NCBI GenBank assembly: GCA_964489895.1
Contig: CAZBAN010000003.1
Span: forward strand, 1 to 61,036
Origin: an uncultured Dehalococcoidales bacterium
Lineage (GTDB): Bacteria > Chloroflexota > Dehalococcoidia > Dehalococcoidales > UBA2162
Reading direction: 5' to 3'
DNA length: 61,036 nt
Positions within the stretch are counted from its first letter, which is position 1, and each line of letters starts with the position of its first letter. This document shows, one piece after another, positions 1 to 13,640 of this stretch. Made by a program: the position numbers and the translations under genes. Under the pieces are notes generated by a model. That model did no database searches. It saw only the letters and a list, made by a program, of their open reading frames with translations, and was not told the DNA's origin.

Positions 1-341
1 ATTCTCCGGTGCTCATTACGACTAATTTCTCGCTGACCTACTTTCTTGTCTCCGGGGAAATAGAATCAAGCAGGATTCCAAGCTGGCTTCTGGTTATGGA
101 TACCGAGGGGCTTTCGGTAATGACTGCCTGGGCAGCAGGCAAGTTTGTAGCTGATGCTATCGCACCATTCGTTAAGAAGAGTGGTATTGAAGACAAAGTT
201 AAACATCGCAAGTTAATAATTCCGGGATACGCTGCTGCCGAAAGTGGCGGTCTGGAAGAGGAGTTACCTGGTTGGGAGGTTCTGGTTGGTCCAAGGGAAG
301 GTTCGCAAATAACAGCTTTTCTCAAAACATGGAGTCCATAA
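1..341 (+). CDS. acsC: Corrinoid iron-sulfur protein large subunit (AcsC/CdhE type), C-terminal fragment; the gene continues upstream of the window
   Basis: The frame is open from the window edge. Motifs TTNFSLTYF and DTEGLSVMTAWAAGKF are as I recall them from the CFeSP large-subunit C-terminal domain. acsE follows immediately. Confidence 0.7.
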   Translation, partial: SPVLITTNFSLTYFLVSGEIESSRIPSWLLVMDTEGLSVMTAWAAGKFVADAIAPFVKKSGIEDKVKHRKLIIPGYAAAESGGLEEELPGWEVLVGPREGSQITAFLKTWSP

Positions 342-351
342 GGAGGTAAAG

Positions 352-1227
352 ATGATCCTTATTGCGGAAAGCATCAATATTATGTCCCAGACTATCGGTC
401 CGGCAATGAGGGAAAGGAATCCTAAACCTATTCAGGAAATGGCTAAAGCTGAAGCTGAAGCCGGTGCAGACTACCTTGATTTGAATATTGGTCCGGCGCG
501 GAGAGCCGGCGATGAGATGATGGAATGGGTGGTGAAAACTGTGCAGGAGGTCACAGACCTGCCACTTTCGCTTGATACAACCAATCCTTTAGCTATGGAG
601 GCTGGACTAAAGGTGCACAAAGGCAAGGTGCTGATTAATTCTATCTCCCTGGTAAGGATGGAAGAAGAATTGCCATTTGTCCAGAAATATGATGCTGACT
701 TTATCGGGTTATTATGGGGAAGAGAGGGAATGCCGAGGGATGCTGATGAGAGAGCTATGATAGCCGTTGAAATTATGTCTATAGCCAGTGAGATGGGTAT
801 CTCTAATGAGCGTATCTGGTTCGACCCCATTGTTACCCCGGTAGTTAATATTGAGGCGAACCAATCCAAGCCGTGTATGGAGTTTATGAGTACGCTAGAG
901 GATATTGTTCCAGAGTCTAGATCAGCGGTTGGATTATCTAATGTCTCTAATGGTGCCCCCATTCACCTCAGGCCTATGCTTAATCGTACTTACATGATTA
1001 TGCTGATGAAGTACGGGCTGTACTCGGCAATAGTCGATATCTTTGATGCTGAACTGGTGAAAATAGCCAGAGGTGAGATGCCGGAGATTGTTGACTTGGT
1101 ACACCGGGTAATGGATGGTGAAAGACCTGACCTTTCCTCGCTTAGCAAGGAAGAATCGGATTATGTGAAAACGGTAAGGGTTCTTACCGGAGAATCACTT
1201 TACTCTCATTCCTGGCTGGAAATATAA
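352..1227 (+). CDS. acsE: Methyltetrahydrofolate:corrinoid iron-sulfur protein methyltransferase (pterin-binding, DHPS-like)
   Basis: 291 aa. N-terminal IAESIN motif, DYLDLNIGP and INSIS motifs of the pterin-binding barrel. RBS AGGAGG upstream. Wood-Ljungdahl context. Confidence 0.85.
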   Translation: MILIAESINIMSQTIGPAMRERNPKPIQEMAKAEAEAGADYLDLNIGPARRAGDEMMEWVVKTVQEVTDLPLSLDTTNPLAMEAGLKVHKGKVLINSISLVRMEEELPFVQKYDADFIGLLWGREGMPRDADERAMIAVEIMSIASEMGISNERIWFDPIVTPVVNIEANQSKPCMEFMSTLEDIVPESRSAVGLSNVSNGAPIHLRPMLNRTYMIMLMKYGLYSAIVDIFDAELVKIARGEMPEIVDLVHRVMDGERPDLSSLSKEESDYVKTVRVLTGESLYSHSWLEI

Positions 1228-1261: not shown

Positions 1262-2149
1262 ATGGTTCAAGAAATACCAGTGGTGTGGTTGGCAGCGTCT
1301 TCATGCACCGGATGCAGTATATCACTACTGAATTCAGCCAGTCCTTCTATCAAGAACTTACTGGTCGATGAGGTAATCCCCGGTGTACATATCAACCTCC
1401 GCTTTCACCAGACGGTTATGGCTGGTAGCGGTGAAGCGGCGATTCAGGTCCTCGAAGACACTGCCAGAGAGAAGAAGGGCGAGTATGTCCTGGCGGTCGA
1501 TGGCTCTATTCCAAGAGGTGATACTGCCGGATACTGTGTTATGGGAGAAAGGGGTGACAAGCCGGTAACTATGGAAAACAGGCTGGAGGAGCTGGCAAAG
1601 GATGCTCTTGCCATTCTGGCAGTGGGTACATGTGCTTCCTTCGGCGGAATCCCGGCGGCTGAGCCCAATCCCAGTAACGCTCAACCGGTAAGGAAGTTGC
1701 TCGAAGATAAAGGGATTGATAAGCCTCTGATAAATATCCCGGGTTGCCCGCCGCATCCGGACTGGATTGTCGGCACGATAGCCAGTATTTTACTGAACGG
1801 ACTGCCTAAAGCGGAAGACCTGGATGATAATCTAAGACCGCTGGCTTTCTACGGTAAATTGATACATGAGAATTGTCCCCGTCGTGCCTATTTCGATGAA
1901 GGCAAGTTTGCTAAAAAACCGGGTGATGAGGGGTGTTTGTATGAACTTGGATGCAAAGGTCCTATTACCTATGCCGATTGCTCTTTAAGACGGTGGAATG
2001 ACGGCACAAACTGGGTTATAGGTGCCGGGTCGCCCTGCCTGGGATGCACCCAGCCCGAGTTCCCTAATCTGCCTTTCTATCAGAAGCTGGTTGACGTCGA
2101 GTTACCGGTGATTGGCGCTTACTGGACAGGTGAAAAGGAGGATTTATAG
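1262..2149 (+). CDS. [NiFe] hydrogenase small subunit, no Tat signal peptide
   Basis: The proximal-cluster motif CTGCSIS lies about 10 residues from the start, with no RRxF leader. GTCASFGG and PGCPPHP are present. The C-terminal HENC...C...C...C...CLGC pattern fits medial and distal clusters. Confidence 0.9.
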   Translation: MVQEIPVVWLAASSCTGCSISLLNSASPSIKNLLVDEVIPGVHINLRFHQTVMAGSGEAAIQVLEDTAREKKGEYVLAVDGSIPRGDTAGYCVMGERGDKPVTMENRLEELAKDALAILAVGTCASFGGIPAAEPNPSNAQPVRKLLEDKGIDKPLINIPGCPPHPDWIVGTIASILLNGLPKAEDLDDNLRPLAFYGKLIHENCPRRAYFDEGKFAKKPGDEGCLYELGCKGPITYADCSLRRWNDGTNWVIGAGSPCLGCTQPEFPNLPFYQKLVDVELPVIGAYWTGEKEDL

Positions 2150-3663
2150 TGGCCAAAATAGTCATTGACCCGATGACTAGGATAGAAGGTCATCTTAAGA
2201 TTGAGACAACGGTTGAGGACGGTGTTATCAAGGACGCTCGCAGCACCGGCAACCTGTTCCGGGGCATTGAGCTTATCCTGCGGGATAGAGACCCCAGGGA
2301 TGCTCAGGTCATAACCCAGCGCATTTGCGGGGTTTGTCCCCAATCGCACGGTGTAGCGGCGGCTTTGAACCTGGATAGCGCCTTCGGTATCGGCGGTCAG
2401 ATACCGGACAACGGACGGATTATCCGCAACCTTATCCAGGGAGCTCATGTTGCTCAGGACCATATCCTGCATTTTTATCACCTGGCGGCTCTCGACTATG
2501 TGGACGTGACCGATGTGGCGAAATATGACGGTAAAGACTCGGAACTGAATTCAGTGAAGGATTTTATCAATCGGGGTGAGCTGGGACCGTTTATGCCACG
2601 GTACGAAGGCGATTACAGGCTGCCGCCTGAAGTGAACCAGATGGCGACAGCTCACTATATACAGGCGCTGGAAATCAGGAGAATCGCCCATGAGATGGTC
2701 AGTATTTTCAGCGGTAAAATCCCCCACAGCGTCGGCATCGTGCCCGGCGGCGTAACCTGCACTCCTACTATCGACATGATAACTTCCTATCTATGGAAAT
2801 TAAAGAAAGTGCGGGACTTTATTGATAATGTCTATATCCCGGACGTCCTGGCAGTGGCTGGTGTCTATCTGGATTATACCGAGATTGGAGCCGGCTGTAA
2901 GAATCTCCTTTCCTACGGGCAGTATGACCTGGAGGGCGGAGAGCCGGATGTCATCAAGCGGAAGAGAATGTATATTCCGGGAGTTACCTCGGCAGACCTG
3001 AAACCGGGCAAACTGGATGTCGACAAGATAGCCGAATATGTAACGCACTCCTGGTATGAGGACTATCCCGGAGCCAGGCATCCCTCCAAGGGAGAGACCA
3101 GACCGAACCAGAATAAAGAGGGAGCTTATTCCTGGGTAAAGTCTCCCCGGTATGACGGCATGGTATATGAAGTCGGACCTCTGGCGAGGCTGGCTGTAAA
3201 TTATGCCAGCGGCGACCCGGTGGTGAAGGAGTTGGTAGATTCTGCGCTAGCCCGGTTGAAGGCTCCGCCTTCGGCACTCTTCTCTGTTATGGGCAGGCAT
3301 CTGGCACGGGCTCTGTGTGCCAAGCTGACTGCCGATAATCTTGAGAAATGGGTACTTGAAGTAAAACCCGGAGAGCCCGCTTATACCGAATATGAAATGC
3401 CTGAAGAGTCCACCGGATTCGGCTTAACGGAAGCAGCCCGTGGTGCTCTGGGGCACTGGATTGAAATAAAGGATTATAAGATAGCCAACTATCAGTGTGT
3501 CGTACCCACCACCTGGAATGCTTCTCCCAGAGATGAAAACGGAAATCCCGGTCCCATAGAGCAGGCGATAATCGGGACTAAAATAAAGGATAAAGATAAC
3601 CCGTTTGAAATAGTGCGTATTGTTCGTTCGTTTGATCCCTGTATTGCCTGCGCCATTCATTAG
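2149..3663 (+). CDS. [NiFe] hydrogenase large subunit; ends exactly at the His of DPCxxCxxH
   Basis: RIEGHLKIE and RICGVCPQSHG (L1) motifs, and C-terminal FDPCIACAIH followed directly by TAG. GTG start overlaps the small-subunit stop by 1 nt (TAGTG). Confidence 0.92.
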   Translation: MAKIVIDPMTRIEGHLKIETTVEDGVIKDARSTGNLFRGIELILRDRDPRDAQVITQRICGVCPQSHGVAAALNLDSAFGIGGQIPDNGRIIRNLIQGAHVAQDHILHFYHLAALDYVDVTDVAKYDGKDSELNSVKDFINRGELGPFMPRYEGDYRLPPEVNQMATAHYIQALEIRRIAHEMVSIFSGKIPHSVGIVPGGVTCTPTIDMITSYLWKLKKVRDFIDNVYIPDVLAVAGVYLDYTEIGAGCKNLLSYGQYDLEGGEPDVIKRKRMYIPGVTSADLKPGKLDVDKIAEYVTHSWYEDYPGARHPSKGETRPNQNKEGAYSWVKSPRYDGMVYEVGPLARLAVNYASGDPVVKELVDSALARLKAPPSALFSVMGRHLARALCAKLTADNLEKWVLEVKPGEPAYTEYEMPEESTGFGLTEAARGALGHWIEIKDYKIANYQCVVPTTWNASPRDENGNPGPIEQAIIGTKIKDKDNPFEIVRIVRSFDPCIACAIH

Positions 3664-3722
3664 CTGCCAGAACATGGGTATCGGAGGAGTAGGTGAACTG
3701 TCCGGACCATTAAGGAGGAAAG

Positions 3723-4415
3723 ATGATTCTTTCAAAGCAAAAACCCTTTGAAGAAATACTGGAGTATCTGGACGGAGAGGGGAAGGTCTTCCTGTTGGGT
3801 TGTAACGGTTGTGCTCAAGCCTCAGGCACCGGCGGTCCGGAGCAGGTTGAGGAGATGAAAGCCAGACTGGAAGAAGTCGGTAAAAAAATCACTGGCAGCG
3901 CTGTAATTGATTTTCTCTGCGATAAAGCCCTGATTAGGTCACGATTGAGGAATTATATAGAAGAAATTAAAGCAGCCGATTCGATACTGGTTATGACCTG
4001 CGGTGTCGGTGTACAGGCGACGGCTGCTTCGGTCAATAAACTCTGCCATCCCGCCTGTGATACGGTCAATCTGGGCGGCAGCCGCGGAGAATGGCCGGGC
4101 AGTGAAAGGTGCATGGAGTGTGGCGAATGTATGCTTGAATATACGGGAGGCATTTGCCCATTAACAGCCTGTGCCAAAGGTTTATTGAACGGGCAGTGCG
4201 GGGGAGCATCCGGGGGAAAGTGCGAGGTCAGCCCGGAGAAGGACTGTGGCTGGGAACTCATTTACAAGAGACTTAAAGCCCTGAACAGGCTGGATAAGCT
4301 GGGGAAGTTCGTTACCCCCAAAGACCATAGCAAAACACTGCCTGAGACCGGACTGATGTCGACATCAAAATGGGCACTGGAACAGACCGGCAATAAGGAG
4401 AGGGTTGCAGAATGA
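3723..4415 (+). CDS. metV: Methylene-THF reductase-associated Cys-rich subunit MetV (MTHFR C-terminal-like domain)
   Basis: 230 aa. LLGCNGCAQ and CMECGECM...CPLTACAKGLLNGQCGG motifs. Stop overlaps the metF start (ATGA). Confidence 0.8.
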   Translation: MILSKQKPFEEILEYLDGEGKVFLLGCNGCAQASGTGGPEQVEEMKARLEEVGKKITGSAVIDFLCDKALIRSRLRNYIEEIKAADSILVMTCGVGVQATAASVNKLCHPACDTVNLGGSRGEWPGSERCMECGECMLEYTGGICPLTACAKGLLNGQCGGASGGKCEVSPEKDCGWELIYKRLKALNRLDKLGKFVTPKDHSKTLPETGLMSTSKWALEQTGNKERVAE

Positions 4416-5287
4416 GCTTGAAAACATCCCTTGAAAAACAAAAATTCGTGATAACCTGCGAAATCGGCCCTCTTAAAGGGACGGATACTGCGGAGATACT
4501 CGAAGCAGCCGAACTTCTACGGGGAAGAGTCCATGCGGCTAACGTTACCGACCAGCAGAGCTCGGTAATGAGGCTGGGTTCAATGGTTACCAGCTATCTA
4601 ATAAAAGAAAAAGGGCTTGACCCTATATTCCAGATGACCTGCCGGGACAGAAACCGGATAGCGCTGCAATCGGACCTTTTAAGTGCCAGTGTGTTGGGAA
4701 TCGAGAATGTACTGGCTATCACCGGCGATCTTCCATCGCTGGGAGACCATCCTCAGGCTATGTCTGTTTATGATTTGGATTCCGTCCAGCTCCTGTGGGT
4801 GATAGGACAGTTAAATGAAGGTTATGATATGGTGGGTAACGAGCTGAAAGGCAGGACAAACTTTTACCCGGGAGCGGTGGTGAACCCCGGAGCTGATACT
4901 GAAGCCAGTCTTGAACTACAGATTATAAAGATGGAGAAGAAAATAGAAGCCGGTGCCAAGTTTTTTCAAACACAGGCGATTTATGACGTAGACTCCTTTG
5001 CTAAATTTATGAATAGGGTGGAGGGATACAAGATACCTGTCCTGGCTGGTATTATACCGTTAAAGTCAGTCGGTATGGCGCGGTTTATGAATAAGAGTGT
5101 GGCCGGTGTCTTTGTGCCGGAAGAATTGATTAAGAAGATGGCTGATGCCGAGAATAAGACCGAGACCGGGATACAGATTGCGGCAGACCTGATAAAGGAC
5201 CTTAGAGATATCTGCCAGGGCGTGCACATTATGGCTATCGGCTGGGAGAAGAAAGTACCCCAGATACTTGATACCGCCGGGCTTTAG
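4412..5287 (+). CDS. metF: 5,10-methylenetetrahydrofolate reductase
   Basis: 291 aa. MetF-like TIM barrel signatures (FVITCEI, QMTCRDRNR, NVLAITGD, FFQTQAIYD). Confidence 0.88.
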   Translation: MSLKTSLEKQKFVITCEIGPLKGTDTAEILEAAELLRGRVHAANVTDQQSSVMRLGSMVTSYLIKEKGLDPIFQMTCRDRNRIALQSDLLSASVLGIENVLAITGDLPSLGDHPQAMSVYDLDSVQLLWVIGQLNEGYDMVGNELKGRTNFYPGAVVNPGADTEASLELQIIKMEKKIEAGAKFFQTQAIYDVDSFAKFMNRVEGYKIPVLAGIIPLKSVGMARFMNKSVAGVFVPEELIKKMADAENKTETGIQIAADLIKDLRDICQGVHIMAIGWEKKVPQILDTAGL

Positions 5288-5304: not shown

Positions 5305-5967
5305 ATGGAAGACAAGCATATTAGAGTACCAGAGAACAAGAATTATGAGTATGGTTTAGAGCAAGCCTATAAACTTGTCTGTGAGAAATTGCTTAAGATA
5401 GAAGATTTCGAGCGGCAGTGTAGTAACAGCGGCAGCAACTACTGGCAGATAGATTCCAAGAAGATAATCAGTATCCGTTACCTGAACAGATTGTACAATA
5501 TAGTAGTTCCGGATATCGAGATTTCACTGGCTGATTCCACCGAGGAAGTCTCTTTAAGGGAGAAGGTCCTTATCCTCCACTATTTCACTCAGGCAAAAGG
5601 CACGCCGCTTTCCGGACAGTTAATCACCTTCAGAGAGTTACCGGAAGGTAAGGTTTATTTACCGACATTCTCAAAAAGGACCGTCAATCCCCTGATGGAG
5701 AATTTCGGCAGAGAACCGCTGCGTATGGTTGAGGTCAGTAAGGAACTGGGAGGCAGGGAGACGGACTACGGGGATACGGCGGTAACGATTGATGCCTTTC
5801 CCCGAGTCCCTCTAACCATGGTTATCTGGCATGGCGACGAAGAGTTTGCTCCTCAGGGGAATATTGTATTCGATGCCAGCATAACCGATTACCTTTCAAC
5901 AGAAGATATAACCGTGGTTAGTGAGATTATCACCTGGAAACTGGTGAGGCTATCGAGAGAAGCCTGA
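5305..5967 (+). CDS. DUF3786-like protein commonly linked to acs/met clusters
   Basis: 220 aa. Recalled similarity to DUF3786 proteins found in Wood-Ljungdahl gene clusters, plus its position directly after metF. Confidence 0.5.
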   Translation: MEDKHIRVPENKNYEYGLEQAYKLVCEKLLKIEDFERQCSNSGSNYWQIDSKKIISIRYLNRLYNIVVPDIEISLADSTEEVSLREKVLILHYFTQAKGTPLSGQLITFRELPEGKVYLPTFSKRTVNPLMENFGREPLRMVEVSKELGGRETDYGDTAVTIDAFPRVPLTMVIWHGDEEFAPQGNIVFDASITDYLSTEDITVVSEIITWKLVRLSREA

Positions 5968-6072: not shown

Positions 6073-6678
6073 ATGGAGATAACATCGATTATCCTGGCCG
6101 GGGGCAAGAACCTTCGGCTGGGAAGAAGCAAAGCCCTGGAACTTGTTAACGGTAAAAGCCTCATCGAACGGGTTTTCGAACGACTGAAACCGCTGTCCGA
6201 TGAGATTCTGGTGGTAACCTCGCCGGAGCAGTTTGACCTCCCAGGTGATTACCGGGCTAAGATGACGGAAGATATCTATCCCGGTAAAGGTCCCATCGGA
6301 GGTTTATATACGGGCTTGATGGCTTCAAAATCGCTGATAAATATCGTGGTCGCCTGTGACATGCCGTTTCTCAATACGGGGTTGTTGGAGTATATGGTCG
6401 GCCTGGCAGGCGACTATGATGCAGTTGTGCCCCGTTTAGAAAACGGGATGATAGAACCTCTCCATTCAATATACTCCAGGAGTTGTTTGAGTTATATTGA
6501 AAAGCAAATGGGAAATAGCCGGTTGAGCATTCATGCTTTTCTAGACAAGGCACGTGTAAGATATGTAGAGCGGACAGAAAGCGGAAAATTAGACCCACAG
6601 TATTTGTCCTTTTTTAATATAAACGACCAGTCGGACCTGGACCGGGCTATCGAGCTAGCTGAGAAGCACGGCATCTAA
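6073..6678 (+). CDS. mobA: Molybdenum cofactor guanylyltransferase
   Basis: 201 aa. N-terminal ILAGGKNLRLG nucleotide-binding loop, and VACDMPF and EPLHSIY motifs. Confidence 0.8.
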   Translation: MEITSIILAGGKNLRLGRSKALELVNGKSLIERVFERLKPLSDEILVVTSPEQFDLPGDYRAKMTEDIYPGKGPIGGLYTGLMASKSLINIVVACDMPFLNTGLLEYMVGLAGDYDAVVPRLENGMIEPLHSIYSRSCLSYIEKQMGNSRLSIHAFLDKARVRYVERTESGKLDPQYLSFFNINDQSDLDRAIELAEKHGI

Positions 6679-6747: not shown

Positions 6748-6776
6748 TTGACAATAGTCATATAGATAGCTATAAT
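6748..6776 (+). promoter_or_regulatory. Sigma70-type promoter with perfect consensus
   Basis: TTGACA (6748-6753), 17-nt spacer, TATAAT (6771-6776). An AT-rich 8-bp inverted repeat ATGTAAAA/TTTTACAT (6715-6735) lies just upstream. Confidence 0.5.
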
Positions 6777-6809
6777 GTGGACTACTGTCACTCCGAATGG
6801 AGGTGCCAC

Positions 6810-7178
6810 ATTTATAGCGTCCTCGTGGTAGGTAACGAACCTTACTTCGGGTCCATACTCTCCGACGCTCTGACTGGAGCAGACCTGGAGGTGGCCGGAG
6901 TTTCAGATTACTCCGAAGCTATATCGGAGCTAATAGAGTCAAAACGTGACATCGTGGTTATAAATATAGATTTACCTTCAACTAATGTCCTGGATGCCTG
7001 TTATTATTTACACAGGGCATTTAACATACCTGTTATCATTGTAGGAAAAGAAACAGAAGATGTAACATGGGAGAAAGCTGTACAGGCAGGGGCTGACCAT
7101 CTACTTGAGGGACCTGTCAGCGGTATAGAACTGGCAGCAAGGATTAAAGCTATTCTCCGTCGATACGAAAGTGGCTAA
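6810..7178 (+). CDS. Stand-alone receiver-domain protein with a degenerate phosphoacceptor pocket; start codon uncertain
   Basis: CheY-like (beta-alpha)5 pattern: VLVVGNEP, DIVVINIDLP, PVIIVGK, GADHLLEGP. GGAGG at 6799-6803 is followed 6 nt later by ATT. The GTG at 6777 lies upstream of the predicted transcription start. Confidence 0.55.
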   Translation: MYSVLVVGNEPYFGSILSDALTGADLEVAGVSDYSEAISELIESKRDIVVINIDLPSTNVLDACYYLHRAFNIPVIIVGKETEDVTWEKAVQAGADHLLEGPVSGIELAARIKAILRRYESG

Positions 7179-8079: not shown

Positions 8080-8586
8080 ATGAAAAGAGTCGCAGGAGTA
8101 ATAATACTGATACTGACTCTATCAATGCTAATTACCGGGTGTTCCGGCGGGGGAAGTTCGTCAGCGGAAGTGGGCTCTAAAGCTCCTGATTTCTGTTTAA
8201 AAGACCTTTCGGGACAGGAGTATTCCCTGAGCGAACTAAAGGGAAAGCCGGTATTGTTAAATTTCTGGGCGACCTGGTGCGGTCCCTGTCGCGGTGAAAT
8301 GCCGTATCTCGAAGAGATTTATAGAGAGTGGTCAGGAAAGGGACTGACATTGTTTGCGGTTAATATCGGTGAAAGCTCTTCTCAGGCTAGAGGGTACCTG
8401 CAGACTTATGGCATGTCTCTGCCGGTACTGCTGGATAGCGCCCAGACAGTAGCAAAAAGATACAACATAACGGGTATTCCCACTACCTTCTTCATTGATA
8501 AGAATGGTATAATTCAGGGTAAAGTGGTCGGAGCTTTCCGGGATAAGGAAAGCATTGTACCATATATTGCCGATATAATGCCCTGA
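8080..8586 (+). CDS. TlpA/ResA-family thioredoxin-like lipoprotein
   Basis: Lipobox LITGC, WATWCGPC active site, and adjacency to ccdA. Confidence 0.85.
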   Translation: MKRVAGVIILILTLSMLITGCSGGGSSSAEVGSKAPDFCLKDLSGQEYSLSELKGKPVLLNFWATWCGPCRGEMPYLEEIYREWSGKGLTLFAVNIGESSSQARGYLQTYGMSLPVLLDSAQTVAKRYNITGIPTTFFIDKNGIIQGKVVGAFRDKESIVPYIADIMP

Positions 8587-8634
8587 AAATTATATATACT
8601 GATTAACAGTTGGTGATACAAAGGAGGTCGGAGT

Positions 8635-8952
8635 ATGGGGGATGCTTTTAACGAAGCATACGGGATAGTCCAGTGTAAGGAGTGTCCCTGGTATAAGTCC
8701 TGTGTGACGCCGATGAAATTCACGGCGGAAGATATCCGCCGACAGATAGAGTCGTCGCCCGGGATGAATGCATCCTCACAGGCTGATATGGGTATTGAGA
8801 GTCTGCTATCGAGTATGGCGTCTGCCGCTCAGAACTCGTTGCTGGAGGGCTGCCCCGTCTTTATCGAGCGTTTACGCTCCAATCCGATTCTTGCCCAGCG
8901 TGTGAAACAGATGATGCAGAACTGGGCTAAAGAAGAACAGTCACCCGATTAA
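8635..8952 (+). CDS. Hypothetical small Cys-containing protein
   Basis: 105-aa ORF with RBS AAGGAGG upstream and a CKECPWYKSC motif. No family recognised. Confidence 0.4.
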   Translation: MGDAFNEAYGIVQCKECPWYKSCVTPMKFTAEDIRRQIESSPGMNASSQADMGIESLLSSMASAAQNSLLEGCPVFIERLRSNPILAQRVKQMMQNWAKEEQSPD

Positions 8953-8993
8953 AAAGTTGCTATCATACAAATACCAATAGTAGTACCGGGGGA

Positions 8994-10559
8994 GTGATGT
9001 CTGAAGATACCGAAATTAAGAAAGAACAACTGGCAAATTTGAAAGAGCGCCGTAAAAAAGTCCTCGGAATGGGGGGAAGCGACCGTGTGGAGGCGCAGAA
9101 AAAGAAGGATAAGCTGACGGCCCGGGAACGGATAGATGCTCTGCTTGATAAAAACACCTTTAGAGAGACCGGCATGTTCGCTAGGAGCAGGGGGGCGGTT
9201 ACCGATATCCCGGCTGACGGTGTGATTACGGGATACGGTAAAATCGACGGCAGAAAGGTATATATCTATTCACAGGACTTCACAAGTACCGGAGGCACGC
9301 TGTCTGAAGTACACGCTCAAAAAATATGCACCATACTGGACAGCGCCATGAAAACCGGCTGCCCGGTGATCGGGATGAACGATTCCGGCGGAGCCAGGAT
9401 TCAGGACGGCGTGGACGCACTCGCCGGTTACGGTAAAATATTTGTCAGAAATACCATGGCTTCCGGCGTCATTCCCCAGATATGCACCATCCTGGGTCCG
9501 AATGCCGGAGGCGCCGTGTACTCACCGGCGCTGATGGACTTCATATTCATGGTAAAGGGCATCAGCTTTGCCTATATTACCGGACCGCGGGTCGTTCAGT
9601 CGGTGATGGGGCAGGAGATAACCGATGATGAACTGGGCGGTGCAACCGTTGCCCAGAAAAAAGCCGGGGTTGCCTGCCGCTCCGAGAACAGCGAAGAAGA
9701 GTGCTTTAAGAACATAAAGGAACTGCTTGCCTATCTGCCTTCAAGTAACCGGGAAAAGCCGCCCAGGGTCGACTGGGGAGATAAGCCCGACCGCTTGGAC
9801 GATTCTCTGTTTGATATTGTCCCGGCGGCTCCGAATAAACCCTACGACATGCACAAAATAATCGAGAGCGTCTTCGACCAGCGGAAAGACGGTTTAAACT
9901 ATTTCGAGCTGTTCCCTTTATTCGCCACCAACATCATTACCTGCTTTTCCAGGATGAACGGCTGGACGGTGGGTATAATAGCCAACCAGCCGATGTCGAA
10001 GGCTGGTTGTCTGGATATCGACGCCAGCGATAAAGCCTCCCGGTTTATCAGGTTCTGCGACGCTTTTAATATCCCCATCGTCAACCTGGTTGATGTACCG
10101 GGATACCTCCCCGGGAGCGAACAGGAGTGGGGAGGCATAATAAGGCACGGGGCGAAGATGCTTTATGCTTACTCAGAAGCAACCGTGCCCAAGATAACTC
10201 TCACCATCCGGAAAGCCTATGGAGGCGCGTACCTGGGGATGTGCAGTAAAGACCTGGGGGCTGATTTCGTGTACTGCTGGCCCAGCACCGAGCTGGCGGT
10301 GATGGGTGCCGAAGGCGCCGCACCGATTATATTCAGGAGAGAGCTGGAGAAAGCCGAGAACGCCGAGGAGCTGTTACAGCAAAAGATAGATGAGTACCGC
10401 AAAGAGTTCGCCAACCCGTACCGGGCTGCCGAACACCTGCATGTGGATGACGTGATAGAGCCGGCACAGACCAGGTCAAGACTGATAGAGACCCTGGAAA
10501 TGCTGCTGGACAAAAAAGAAGACAGACCAGTAAAGAAACATGGGATAATACCGGCTTAG
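8994..10559 (+). CDS. Acyl-CoA carboxylase carboxyltransferase subunit (propionyl-CoA carboxylase beta / methylmalonyl-CoA decarboxylase alpha family)
   Basis: 521 aa. KLTARERIDALLD N-terminus, GGARIQDG and AYGGAY motifs. The exact start (GTG 8994 or ATG 8997) is uncertain. Confidence 0.88.
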   Translation: MMSEDTEIKKEQLANLKERRKKVLGMGGSDRVEAQKKKDKLTARERIDALLDKNTFRETGMFARSRGAVTDIPADGVITGYGKIDGRKVYIYSQDFTSTGGTLSEVHAQKICTILDSAMKTGCPVIGMNDSGGARIQDGVDALAGYGKIFVRNTMASGVIPQICTILGPNAGGAVYSPALMDFIFMVKGISFAYITGPRVVQSVMGQEITDDELGGATVAQKKAGVACRSENSEEECFKNIKELLAYLPSSNREKPPRVDWGDKPDRLDDSLFDIVPAAPNKPYDMHKIIESVFDQRKDGLNYFELFPLFATNIITCFSRMNGWTVGIIANQPMSKAGCLDIDASDKASRFIRFCDAFNIPIVNLVDVPGYLPGSEQEWGGIIRHGAKMLYAYSEATVPKITLTIRKAYGGAYLGMCSKDLGADFVYCWPSTELAVMGAEGAAPIIFRRELEKAENAEELLQQKIDEYRKEFANPYRAAEHLHVDDVIEPAQTRSRLIETLEMLLDKKEDRPVKKHGIIPA

Positions 10560-10617
10560 ATTTATATCCACTCTGTAATCAGGATTTAGACCGCTTTACG
10601 CTTGGCAGGGACGAGAT

Positions 10618-11655
10618 TTGCTATATATATTATCGGGTCAGGATGATTACTCCATCGCCCGGGCGCTTGAGGCAATAAAACATGAGCTCGGCGACCAGTC
10701 GGCTTTGGCGGCGGGTACCACCACACTCGAAGGCAATCAACTGACGCTGGATGAGCTTAAAACCACCTGCGAAACGATGCCGTTTTTGACCGAAAAGCGA
10801 CTGGTTATCATCAACGGTTTACTGGGTCGGTTCGAACCTCAGCGCAGGTCCCGCCGCCAGGGAAGAACCGCCAAAAACAACGGGAATAAGGACGAAGCCA
10901 GGGCATTCATCGACTGCATCGGCGGAATCCCGGACAGCACCGTGCTGGTGCTGGTCGAGGGCGTGATATCCGGTGACAATCCTCTCCTGAAAGGACTTGC
11001 CGGCAGGGCAACGGTCAGGAATTTCCCTCTGCCAAAAGAAGCAAAGCTTCGCGAGTGGATTCAGAAAAAGGTGAAGGATAAAGGCGGCAGTATCTCGCCG
11101 AAGGCGGTACAGCTCCTGGCGAGGCTGGTGGGCAGCAACCTGTGGATTATGGCCAGCGAGGTTGAAAAGCTGCTCCTGTATGTTGAAGGTCGCACCATCG
11201 GGGAAGAGGACGTTAGGGCTGTAGTCGGCTATAACCAGCAGGCGACTGTTTTCAATATGGTTGACGCCATCCTTGAGTTCAGAGCCGAACTGGCCGAGCA
11301 GTTCCTTCAGCAACTGTTTCTCAGCGGTGTAGCCCCGGTGTACCTGCTCTTTATGCTGTCGCGGCAGGTGCAGTTTATAGTCAGGGTGAAAGAGCTGGCA
11401 AGAAAAAGGAGGACCAACAGGGAGATGCAGAACAGTCTGGGCATGACCTCGGAGTATGTCCTGAAAAAGACACTGGAGCAGGCAAGCAGGTATTCTTTAC
11501 CCAGGCTCAGAGAAGTATACCGGCGCATTCTTGATACCGACCTCTCCATTAAGACCGGGAAGTACGATGCCGAGCTTGCCCTTAACATGCTGGTTGCCGA
11601 GCTGTGTAAAAGGAGCAGGAGCCGTCCTGTCCAGTCCAGACCGGAGATGAGTTGA
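10618..11655 (+). CDS. holA: DNA polymerase III delta subunit
   Basis: 345 aa, TTG start. YILSGQDDY N-terminus and an overall HolA-like pattern. Confidence 0.75.
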   Translation: MLYILSGQDDYSIARALEAIKHELGDQSALAAGTTTLEGNQLTLDELKTTCETMPFLTEKRLVIINGLLGRFEPQRRSRRQGRTAKNNGNKDEARAFIDCIGGIPDSTVLVLVEGVISGDNPLLKGLAGRATVRNFPLPKEAKLREWIQKKVKDKGGSISPKAVQLLARLVGSNLWIMASEVEKLLLYVEGRTIGEEDVRAVVGYNQQATVFNMVDAILEFRAELAEQFLQQLFLSGVAPVYLLFMLSRQVQFIVRVKELARKRRTNREMQNSLGMTSEYVLKKTLEQASRYSLPRLREVYRRILDTDLSIKTGKYDAELALNMLVAELCKRSRSRPVQSRPEMS

Positions 11656-11656
11656 A

Positions 11657-12670
11657 ATGGCTGCCGGAGATAAAGCTGTTATTGCCGTAACAATGGGTGA
11701 CGCTGCCGGCATCGGTCCTGAAATCATCGTCAAAGCCCTCGGGCAGGAGCATATCTACCGCGTCTGTTGTCCTCTGGTCATCGGTGAAAGCGGCATTATG
11801 CGGCAGGCTATAAAGCTGGTAAACAGCCCGTTGAAGCTGAATCCTGTAGAAACGGCAGATGAGATAAAGGGCACTCACGGCACTATTGACCTTCTTGACC
11901 TTAAAAATCTCGATATTAAAGAAGTGGTCATGGGGCAGGTAAACGCGGCTTGCGGCAGGGCGGCTATGGAGTACATCGCCAGGGCTGCCGATATGGCGCT
12001 GAAAGGTGAGGTCAGGGCTATCGCTACCGCGCCGATAAACAAGGGAGCGGTGATAAAGGCGGGATATGAAGACACCGGGCACATGAAATATCTTGCCCGT
12101 CTGACCGGCACCACCGAATATGCCGCTATGCTGGTCACCGGGTCGCTGCGGGTAGTGCATCTGAGCGACCACTATTCGCTTAAAGAGGCATGTGAACTGG
12201 TTACCAGAGATAGAATACTTGCCAAGCTGAGACTGGTGGATAGATCTTTCCGTCAGTGGGGTTTTGAAAAGCCCCGTATCGGCGTGGCTGCCCTCAATCC
12301 CCACGGCAGCGACGGCGGGTTGTTCGGCTCGGAAGAAGCGGAGCAGATTGCGCCGGCTGTTGAAGAAGCGAGGGATTCGGGCATAGATGCCCGTGGTCCT
12401 TTTCCCGCCGATACGATATATACCCGCGCTATCAACGGAGAGTTCGATGTCGTCCTCGCCATGTACCACGACCAGGGGCATATCGCCGTCAAAGTACACG
12501 GCTTCGAGAAGAGCGTGGCTGTTACCCTGGGACTGCCGTTCGTGCGTACTTCCGTTGACCACGGTACGGCTTTCGATATAGCCGGTAAGGGCATCGCTGA
12601 TTCTCAAAGCATGGAAGAAGCAATCAGGACAGCCGTGAAATTGAGCGGAGAAGGCGGGCTTGCGGAGTAA
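11657..12670 (+). CDS. pdxA: 4-hydroxythreonine-4-phosphate dehydrogenase family (PdxA)
   Basis: 337 aa. ITMGDAAGIGPEI, LNPHG and MYHDQGH motifs. Confidence 0.85.
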   Translation: MAAGDKAVIAVTMGDAAGIGPEIIVKALGQEHIYRVCCPLVIGESGIMRQAIKLVNSPLKLNPVETADEIKGTHGTIDLLDLKNLDIKEVVMGQVNAACGRAAMEYIARAADMALKGEVRAIATAPINKGAVIKAGYEDTGHMKYLARLTGTTEYAAMLVTGSLRVVHLSDHYSLKEACELVTRDRILAKLRLVDRSFRQWGFEKPRIGVAALNPHGSDGGLFGSEEAEQIAPAVEEARDSGIDARGPFPADTIYTRAINGEFDVVLAMYHDQGHIAVKVHGFEKSVAVTLGLPFVRTSVDHGTAFDIAGKGIADSQSMEEAIRTAVKLSGEGGLAE

Positions 12671-12671
12671 A

Positions 12672-13640
12672 ATGAAGACTGAAGACCGGCCCGTTTTAGC
12701 CGTAGACCTGGGCGGCACCAAGATGGTTATCGCCTTGGTCTCTCCCGATGGCAGGATTCCACGCAGACTTGACCTTACCACCTCAGCCACCGAAGGACAC
12801 AAGGTGGTTATCGAAAGGATGTTTTCCGGCATAGACAGCCTTCTCGGTAAAAGCGGTCTGTCCAGAGAGCAGTTGCGTGCTATAAGCATTGCCGCCGCCG
12901 GAATCATTGATATGGATGGGGGGATGATTACCGGGGCGCCCAACCTTCCCGACTGGAAGGATATTCCGCTGAAGCGTATCGTTGCGGAGAGATACGGAAT
13001 GGATACCTTTCTGGTCAACGATGCCGATGCGGCAATTCTGGGGGAGCACCGCTTCGGCGCCGGTGAAGGGCAGAACAACCTTGTCCTGCTGACGCTAGGT
13101 ACGGGGATCGGCGGCGGGATTATCATTGACGGGAAACTTTATACCGGCTCCTCAGGCGGCGGTGCCGAACTGGGGCATATGGTTATAAAGGAAGACGGAC
13201 CGGAGTGCGGCTGCGGTAATAACGGTTGTCTGGAGAGTCTGGCTTCCGGTACAGCTATTGCCAGAGAGGCTAAAAAGCGTATCGGTAAGGGTGAGAAGTC
13301 TTCACTTAATGAACTGGTTCACGGGAGACCGGATGATATTACCGCCGAGACAGTCCATCAGGCGGCTCAAGAGGGGGACTCTCTGGCTCTGGAGGTTATA
13401 GGTGAAGCAGCGCACTATCTGGGAATAGGCGTATTGAACCTTGTACAGATATTTAATCCGGAGATGGTTATTCTCGGGGGAAGCGTGGCGCAGATGGGCG
13501 ACCTGTTATTCGAGCCCGTCAGGAAAATGGTGAAAGAGAAAGCCTTCCCGCTGATGGCGAAATCCGTTCAAATCGTGCCGGCCAGACTCGGTAATGATGC
13601 CGGGGTTATCGGCGCGGCTGTTTTCGCCCTTGAACAATAA
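12672..13640 (+). CDS. ROK-family sugar kinase (glucokinase-like)
   Basis: AVDLGGTK N-terminus and the ROK zinc motif ELGHM...CGCGNNGCLE. I prefer ATG 12672 over the upstream TTG 12660. Confidence 0.8.
   Translation: MKTEDRPVLAVDLGGTKMVIALVSPDGRIPRRLDLTTSATEGHKVVIERMFSGIDSLLGKSGLSREQLRAISIAAAGIIDMDGGMITGAPNLPDWKDIPLKRIVAERYGMDTFLVNDADAAILGEHRFGAGEGQNNLVLLTLGTGIGGGIIIDGKLYTGSSGGGAELGHMVIKEDGPECGCGNNGCLESLASGTAIAREAKKRIGKGEKSSLNELVHGRPDDITAETVHQAAQEGDSLALEVIGEAAHYLGIGVLNLVQIFNPEMVILGGSVAQMGDLLFEPVRKMVKEKAFPLMAKSVQIVPARLGNDAGVIGAAVFALEQ

Follow-up and report, generated by a model that had tools for sequence, protein, structure and literature searches.

A cytoplasmic [NiFe] hydrogenase encoded with the methylene-tetrahydrofolate reductase MetVF in Dehalococcoidales: a probable H2:methylene-tetrahydrofolate oxidoreductase module

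Introduction

Which electron donor serves MetVF-type methylene-tetrahydrofolate (methylene-THF) reductases in the cell is recognised as an unsolved question of acetogen bioenergetics (PMC8760232, PMC8515935), and the answer determines what ATP yields are calculated for the Wood-Ljungdahl pathway. Here, we describe a locus in which a [NiFe] hydrogenase, HydSL, is encoded immediately ahead of MetV and MetF, at positions 1262-5287 of a 61,036-nucleotide stretch (referred to below as the window) of contig CAZBAN010000003.1, from the assembly GCA_964489895.1 of an uncultured Dehalococcoidales bacterium. Judging from gene content, cofactor motifs and a linkage that is retained throughout the hydrogenase clade, HydSL-MetVF is probably a soluble cytoplasmic H2:methylene-THF oxidoreductase complex that operates in the direction of H2 uptake. 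The clade-wide module suggests a further solution to the donor problem, in which H2 is used directly, without NADH, ferredoxin, Hdr or Rnf, in widespread uncultivated lineages of sediments and the subsurface (Dehalococcoidia as well as metagenome-assembled genomes (MAGs) labelled Actinomycetota and Desulfobacterota).

Among the described MetVF systems, type II (2S) is represented by MetFV of Clostridium ljungdahlii, type III (3S) by RnfC2-MetVF of Acetobacterium woodii, and type IV (6S) by HdrABC-MvhD-MetVF of Moorella thermoacetica (PMC8515935, PMC8760232). With these and with the X type, the locus shares a core of MetV (PF12225, conserved Cys) and MetF, a metV gene that lies upstream of metF and overlaps it, a Wood-Ljungdahl gene context, and an upstream gene that supplies the electron-input module. 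It differs in that this input module would be a [NiFe] hydrogenase, so that the donor would be H2 itself and not NADH or ferredoxin. A hydrogenase-MetVF type is absent from the published schemes, which comprise types I-IV (PMC8760232) and the E. coli, 2S, 3S, 6S and X types (PMC8515935), and papers on Chloroflexi, Actinobacteria and Acetothermia describe only Hdr-MvhD-MetVF.

In the literature outside subscription-only papers, no biochemical study of hydSL-metVF was found, and the single mention concerns MAGs of Ca. Bipolaricaulia, for which a "Group 1a hydrogenase (HysAB) adjacent to MetVF" was reported and, in one sentence, suggested as the electron source for methylene-THF reduction (FEMS Microbiol Ecol 2024, PMC11287216). 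The adjacency is the same as in the window; localisation, phylogeny, a distribution analysis and experiments are not part of that report. The module has thus been noticed before and not characterised.

Direct wiring of a hydrogenase to a C1-reducing enzyme is exemplified by HDCR of Acetobacterium woodii, in which the hydrogenase is connected through Fe-S subunits and no soluble carrier is involved. In the Mvh-Hdr complex of methanogens, a hydrogenase is wired through Fe-S subunits to a disulfide-reducing enzyme (PMC7325909). The carrier-free wiring proposed here resembles both systems, although MvhAGD-HdrABC and HDCR rely on group 3c [NiFe] and [FeFe] hydrogenases and on MvhD and HycB-like adaptors, respectively. 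The same overall reaction, H2-dependent methylene-THF reduction, has been reported for membranes of Sporomusa ovata, where a periplasmic, Tat-exported cytochrome-b hydrogenase feeds quinone and then Hdr-MvhD-MetVF, with conservation of energy (Kremp et al. 2022, PMC9430772). In contrast to that route, HydSL-MetVF is predicted to be cytoplasmic and soluble, without a quinone or cytochrome link.

Conserved linkage of the hydrogenase to metVF

HydL was searched against one genome per species, which gave 230 relatives; the best 80, with 65-91% identity to HydL and labelled Dehalococcoidia, Actinomycetota and Desulfobacterota, were analysed. Among these best 80 of 230, metV follows hydL in every assessable locus (78/78), the loci L064 and L074 being left out of the count because their contigs end too early. 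The metF gene follows metV in 68 of 69 loci, with L058 as the single exception. Linkage to metV spans three subclades, several phylum labels and at least four flanking contexts, and is far beyond chance. A hydrogenase clade generally unlinked to metVF, which a sequence-only reading of the window had named as the finding that would speak against its proposal, is therefore the opposite of what the survey returned.

The flanking contexts vary considerably. In the closest relatives, cooS-acsB-acsC-acsE lies upstream and DUF3786-mobA downstream, and DUF3786 accompanies the module solely in this acs-embedded subclade (15 loci). In Desulfobacterota- and Actinomycetota-labelled loci, fhs and/or folD are found upstream. 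In 15 loci, hypFCDE lies upstream and the protease gene hycI stands between hydL and metV, which places metVF inside a hydrogenase operon.

The association was also followed in both directions in a separate, evenly drawn sample of 151 Dehalococcoidia genomes. MetV is present in 51 of them, and 11 genomes besides the host encode a MetV with 48-72% identity to that of the window. HydL is encoded 0-550 bp upstream of metV in 10 of these 11 genomes; the eleventh (G139) is not assessable, its metV lying 326 bp from the contig end. In G071, the hydL gene 521 bp upstream of metV is truncated by the contig. From the hydrogenase side, a HydL homologue at E ≤ 1e-100 occurs in 16 genomes and stands beside metV in 10, the host included; the nine others encode the enzyme lacking a twin-arginine translocation (Tat) leader, with metV adjoining. 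Seven HydL matches have no adjoining metV, namely the host's own Hup-like enzyme on contig C45, one in G081, and five in single-contig genomes in which no MetV is encoded. These seven are not of the linked type, and the two that were read (C45 and G081) both bear a Tat leader; the G081 enzyme has the leader motif SRRDFIKL, is linked to a cytochrome b, and has no metVF. Percent identity was considered as a marker of the linked type and rejected, since periplasmic Hup-like enzymes reach 60-66% identity to HydL and linked ones 65-76%, so that the ranges overlap; the linked type is set apart from Hup-like enzymes only by the tree, the loss of the Tat leader and synteny.

Several loci carry variants or additions. 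In about 10 Dehalococcoidales loci, among them L021, L035, L039, L045, L048, L049 and L057, etfB-etfA and a CCG Fe-S protein gene lie directly upstream of hydS; the EtfA carries a ferredoxin domain at its N-terminus, and the CCG protein is an oxidoreductase of 655 aa with Fer4 and CCG domains. The upstream etfBA and CCG oxidoreductase could represent an additional redox partner. In five Desulfobacterota-labelled loci (L067, L069, L073, L079 and L080), genes for an sCache/HAMP histidine kinase and a receiver protein lie downstream of metF, as do further copies of metV and metF (about 40% and 51% identity, respectively), which form a second pair. A second, divergent metV (40-45% identity) stands in tandem inside the hydSL-metVF module at L007:8555-9948, L016:2991-4025 and L022:8571-11804, the last of which also includes a second metF. 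At L078:6116-8557, hydS and hydL apparently form one continuous frame with no stop between them, which reflects either a subunit fusion or an assembly error.

Gene layout of the locus

Gene calls combine the open reading frame listing with Pfam and NCBIfam scans, and give the following order.

3..341, plus strand: acsC, corrinoid Fe-S protein large subunit, C-terminal 112 residues (PF03599 CdhD, 110 bits; NF003195); the contig start cuts the gene.
352..1227, plus strand: acsE, methyl-THF:corrinoid Fe-S protein methyltransferase (PF00809; NF005719, 218 bits; NF040758, 197 bits).
1262..2149, plus strand: hydS, [NiFe]-hydrogenase small subunit, 295 aa (PF01058 and PF14720).
2149..3663, plus strand: hydL, [NiFe]-hydrogenase large subunit, 504 aa, GTG start (PF00374, 548 bits; NF033181, 715 bits against a cut-off of 600).
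3664..3722, plus strand: hydL-metV spacer, 59 nt, with AAGGAGGA as ribosome-binding site; no terminator-like or strong promoter-like site.
3723..4415, plus strand: metV, Fe-S (zinc) electron-transfer subunit of MetVF-type methylene-THF reductase, 230 aa (PF12225, 108 bits).
4412..5287, plus strand: metF, flavin-binding catalytic subunit of methylene-THF reductase, 291 aa (PF02219, 158 bits).
5305..5967, plus strand: DUF3786 protein (PF12654, 168 bits).
6073..6678, plus strand: mobA-like molybdenum cofactor guanylyltransferase (PF12804, NF001457), the final gene ahead of the consensus promoter at 6748.

The hydS and hydL genes overlap by 1 nt, the GTG start of hydL borrowing the G of the hydS stop (TAGTG at 2147-2151), and metV and metF overlap by 4 nt (ATGA at 4412-4415). 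The sequence-only reading had listed this order from acsC to DUF3786 together with tight spacing and these two overlaps, and the scans agree with it in coordinates and in both overlap sites. Strong Shine-Dalgarno sequences precede hydS, hydL and metV, and a sequence scan of the acsC-mobA block gave promoter- or terminator-like matches no more often than expected from shuffled sequence. With its overlaps and Shine-Dalgarno sites and no internal signal above chance, the block appears packed in an operon-like manner. The sole perfect consensus promoter (12/12 sigma-70, TTGACA-17-TATAAT) is located at 6748-6776, directly 3' of mobA, and marks the end of the acs-hyd-met unit; a receiver-domain gene (6777-7178) sits behind it.

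Hydrogenase subunits, localisation and maturation

HydSL shares its Ni-Fe motifs and three-cluster small subunit with the Hys enzyme of Desulfovibrio vulgaris Hildenborough, that of Desulfomicrobium baculatum (PDB 3ZE6, 2WPN, 1CC1, 4KL8) and Hup of Dehalococcoidia. The ligand motifs of HydL are RICGVCPQSH (residues 58-67) and DPCIACAIH (496-504), and its best PDB matches are periplasmic [NiFeSe] large subunits (about 1e-130). Unlike in [NiFeSe] enzymes, the active site of HydL has Cys and not selenocysteine (Sec). HydS likewise matches periplasmic [NiFeSe] small subunits best (about 1e-78), aligned from their mature N-terminus. On alignment to PDB 3ZE6_A and five relatives, the ligands of its proximal [4Fe-4S] cluster are C15, C18, C124 and C162, those of the distal cluster H202, C205, C225 and C231, and those of the medial cluster C240, C259 and C262. 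The medial site is thus of the 3-Cys, [3Fe-4S] type, since the fourth Cys of [NiFeSe] enzymes is Val here. HydL, HydS, MetV and MetF are all intact, with full sets of cofactor ligands.

Several features place the enzyme in the cytoplasm. HydS begins with MVQEIPVVWL..., at the same point as mature periplasmic small subunits, and has no Tat leader; the frame upstream of it lacks an RRxFxK motif, and no such Tat-like upstream frame precedes hydS in 76 relatives. The full three-cluster Cys/His pattern and missing Tat leader that the initial inspection had described are thus borne out by aligned ligands and a mature-type N-terminus. In place of a C-terminal membrane anchor, HydS ends in a conserved tail of ~20 residues (…VDVELPVIGAYW…). 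With a 19-residue hydropathy window, no transmembrane-like segment was detected in HydL, MetV, MetF or DUF3786, and the maximum of HydS is borderline (1.72). Partners typical of group-1a-type periplasmic enzymes (cytochrome c3, cytochrome b, and HybA/HupX with NrfD) were found neither in the window block nor in the 80 related loci, and the linked enzymes further differ from that group in being always followed by metVF.

The other hydrogenases of the host provide a direct comparison. The assembly is a Dehalococcoidales MAG of 2.03 Mb and 92% completeness, and holds two further group 1-3 hydrogenases, a Hup-like enzyme on contig C45 and an Mvh-like one. The C45 operon (8581-12723, minus strand; L095) encodes a periplasmic Hup-like hydrogenase whose small subunit has the Tat leader TRRDFLKL and a C-terminal hydrophobic anchor, together with a Fer4_11 (HupX-like) Fe-S protein and a HycI protease. 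Its large subunit has a 15-residue extension and an in-frame TGA in the motif DP(U)LGC, which is apparently read as Sec, giving a [NiFeSe] enzyme.

The reading frame of window HydL stops at His504, followed by TAG, and thus lacks a C-terminal extension, another difference from group-1a-type enzymes that is confined to its subclade. The extension, which a dedicated endopeptidase normally removes, has also been lost in this subclade. Only two HycI proteases are encoded for the three group 1-3 hydrogenases of the genome, each beside another enzyme (the Mvh-like hydrogenase having its own), which fits an extension-less HydL.

The absence of both a Tat leader and an extension is also a trait of sensor hydrogenases, and a HupUV-type regulatory enzyme that senses H2 and controls expression of metVF or the acetyl-CoA pathway would be in keeping with the kinase and response regulator genes after metF in the Desulfobacterota loci. 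This role is nevertheless exceedingly improbable: 51 of 68 clade members keep the extension, many with a protease gene of their own, the PDB neighbours and the tree place the clade among catalytic group-1a-like enzymes and not in group 2b, and no kinase gene adjoins the module in the window or in most loci.

Phylogeny and origin

Trees were built by quick searches, with SH-aLRT values as the only branch support. The large-subunit tree (116 sequences) unites the 68 metVF-linked HydL in one clade (SH-aLRT 97), the sister of which is the host's own periplasmic [NiFeSe] Hup on C45 (support 82). Outgroup genes from Phycisphaerae, Anaerolineales and Acidobacteriota lie in hupL-hycI-hupS-Fer4_11-NrfD operons, and other Acidobacteriota genes in cytochrome c3-hynS-hynL-hycI operons, in both cases with no metVF. 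Periplasmic or membrane-type redox partners are present in all outgroup loci examined, and a Tat signal was found on hynS in one of the two cytochrome c3 loci examined (L104). From these relationships, the linked hydrogenase is read as a descendant of periplasmic group-1a-like uptake enzymes.

Within the linked clade, the 51 HydL that keep the extension have it at 15 residues, and the 17 that lack it, window HydL among them, form one nested subclade (support 92), to which the loss is confined. The three linked MetF clades are congruent with those of HydL, an agreement that suggests joint inheritance of the genes. Most simply, a periplasmic uptake hydrogenase would have shed its leader and anchor and joined metVF, after which the four-gene unit spread. 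Such a history would offer a clear example of a respiratory hydrogenase that moved from the periplasm to the cytoplasm and was re-wired there to serve another enzyme as its input module.

MetV and MetF

The methylene-THF reductase domain of MetF is full length (profile positions 3-287 of 287). MetV combines an N-terminal alpha/beta domain with four conserved Cys (27, 30, 66 and 93) and a C-terminal PF12225 domain with eight. All 12 are invariant among the four paralogues of the genome, and C30 is nearly invariant (≥90%) among 44 homologues. An AlphaFold2 model of MetV was obtained with a pLDDT of 85, and a sequence search of the PDB returned no MetV-like chain. The N-terminal domain was considered as an MvhD-like adaptor and this was rejected, as hhalign of the 44 MetV sequences against the genome's MvhD gave a probability of 0.5%.

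Proposed reaction and alternatives

In the proposed complex, H2 would be split at the Ni-Fe site of HydL, and electrons would travel down the HydS chain of proximal, medial and distal Fe-S clusters to the Fe-S or metal sites of MetV, and from there to the flavin of MetF. The flavin would in turn reduce methylene-THF to methyl-THF, with which AcsE, encoded next door upstream, would methylate the corrinoid protein of the acetyl-CoA pathway. An H2:methylene-THF oxidoreductase module had been put forward by the sequence-only reading, and the clade-wide metV linkage now supports it; we infer complex formation, HydS-to-MetV electron transfer, the H2 uptake direction and the absence of energy coupling. 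The proposal can be tested directly with four genes and a standard Hyp maturation set.

The energetics permit this reaction. With E0' values of -414 mV for H+/H2 and -200 mV for methylene-/methyl-THF (PMC8760232), the reduction of methylene-THF by H2 is calculated to yield about -41 kJ/mol, so that H2 can drive it directly, even at low H2. The calculated equilibrium lies near 1e-7 bar H2, which makes reverse operation in oxidative pathways conceivable.

An opposite or switchable mode, in which HydSL-MetVF oxidises methyl-THF, releases H2 and serves as a redox valve following ambient H2, would suit acetate or methyl-group oxidation in syntrophy via the acetyl-CoA pathway. The module occurs in Syntrophaceae/Desulfobacterota-labelled lineages and in sediment Dehalococcoidia, and the lowest H2 reported for sulfate-reducing sediments is close to the calculated equilibrium of 1e-7 bar. 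The nearest solved relatives of HydSL are of the [NiFeSe] type, and such hydrogenases are good H2 producers. However, under standard conditions the reverse reaction costs about 41 kJ/mol, and neither a membrane partner nor a bifurcating one is present to drive it. In the window, the module is flanked by acsE on one side and by the remainder of a complete reductive set on the other, and the 3-Cys medial cluster is as in standard uptake [NiFe] enzymes. On balance, we regard this mode as unlikely.

Energy might also be saved at this step by electron bifurcation (or confurcation), with two H2 oxidised and both methylene-THF and a low-potential acceptor, for example ferredoxin, reduced, in analogy to MvhAGD-HdrABC. 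Such coupling is thermodynamically allowed, the calculated mean of about -200 and -500 mV lying above -414 mV; suspicion that methylene-THF reductase is a site of energy coupling is of long standing (PMC8760232, PMC8515935), and the etfBA and CCG oxidoreductase genes upstream of hydS in some Dehalococcoidales loci would provide candidate components. These etf genes are, however, absent from the window and from most loci, and the four-gene core has no HdrA-, EtfAB- or NuoF-type bifurcating flavoprotein, its sole flavin being that of MetF, which is the hydride donor to the folate. Moreover, two-subunit MetFV purified from C. ljungdahlii showed no bifurcation (PMC8515935). Bifurcation is thus very unlikely; if it did take place, the most exergonic step of the Wood-Ljungdahl pathway would save energy without Hdr, Etf or NuoF, which implies a new bifurcating site at the MetF flavin or the MetV metal centre.

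Several observations weigh against an uncoupled HydSL-MetVF complex. Direct H2-driven reduction would waste about 41 kJ/mol, which is unusual at the energy limit. A docking element between HydSL and MetVF was not identified, and the N-terminal domain of MetV is without an informative structural relative: Foldseek of the MetV model against the PDB gave generic Rossmann-like and periplasmic-binding-protein matches (E > 0.001). In the MetF tree, the deeper nodes that separate hydrogenase-linked MetF from other paralogues have weak support (46-88). All relatives are uncultivated MAGs, and some taxon labels may be binning errors, such as "Acidobacteriota" for L004. Finally, at L058:4795-8063, the genes downstream of hydS-hydL-hycI-metV encode a B12-binding radical-SAM protein and an amidohydrolase in place of MetF; because metV is paired there with the radical-SAM gene, MetV may be a general adaptor for other enzymes.

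The L058 arrangement is also compatible with a looser organisation, in which HydSL is a free uptake hydrogenase that reduces ferredoxin, flavodoxin or thioredoxin for MetVF and other enzymes, and adjacency reflects co-regulation. In vitro, two-subunit MetFV accepts electrons from reduced ferredoxin, flavodoxin and thioredoxin (PMC8515935). There is only a slim chance that this applies, as co-regulation leaves unexplained both the invariable adjacency of hydL and metV amid changing neighbours and the nested hycI, no carrier gene is conserved in the module, and ferredoxin reduction by a group-1-type enzyme at low H2 partial pressure would be unfavourable.

Four metVF modules in the host genome

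The host genome contains four metV-metF pairs, including the window copy behind hydSL, and thus holds four alternative MetVF modules side by side. The pair on contig C6 (30242-31787; L097) lies behind an FdhA/NuoG-like protein and a NuoE/F-GltD-like fusion, and this NuoEFG-MetFV arrangement corresponds to the "X type" of Yi et al. (PMC8515935). The pair on C35 (12548-14126; L098) lies behind an HdrA/GltD-like-MvhD fusion, and that on C61 (8188-9827; L096) stands alone, with no redox neighbour. Because these three contexts differ from that of the window and the same 12 Cys are kept, the gene upstream of metV looks like an electron-input module. In addition, fhs and folD are present in the genome and, together with the acs genes, complete the methyl branch.

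The earlier statement that no Hdr-MvhD or Rnf-like partner is encoded is correct for the locus, where the Pfam and NCBIfam scans revealed neither RnfC2 nor HdrABC-MvhD between acsE and mobA, but not for the genome, which has five MvhD homologues and the three further metVF pairs. The hdr/mvhD-like genes each adjoin their own metVF copy and are therefore not obvious partners of the window MetVF; a role for them as its electron donors, which the same reading had named as an argument against direct H2 coupling, thus finds no support in their placement. Two of the five MvhD/FlpD homologues (C4:19359-19727 and C23:9386-9748) have one in-frame TGA each and are possibly Sec-containing forms of MvhD.

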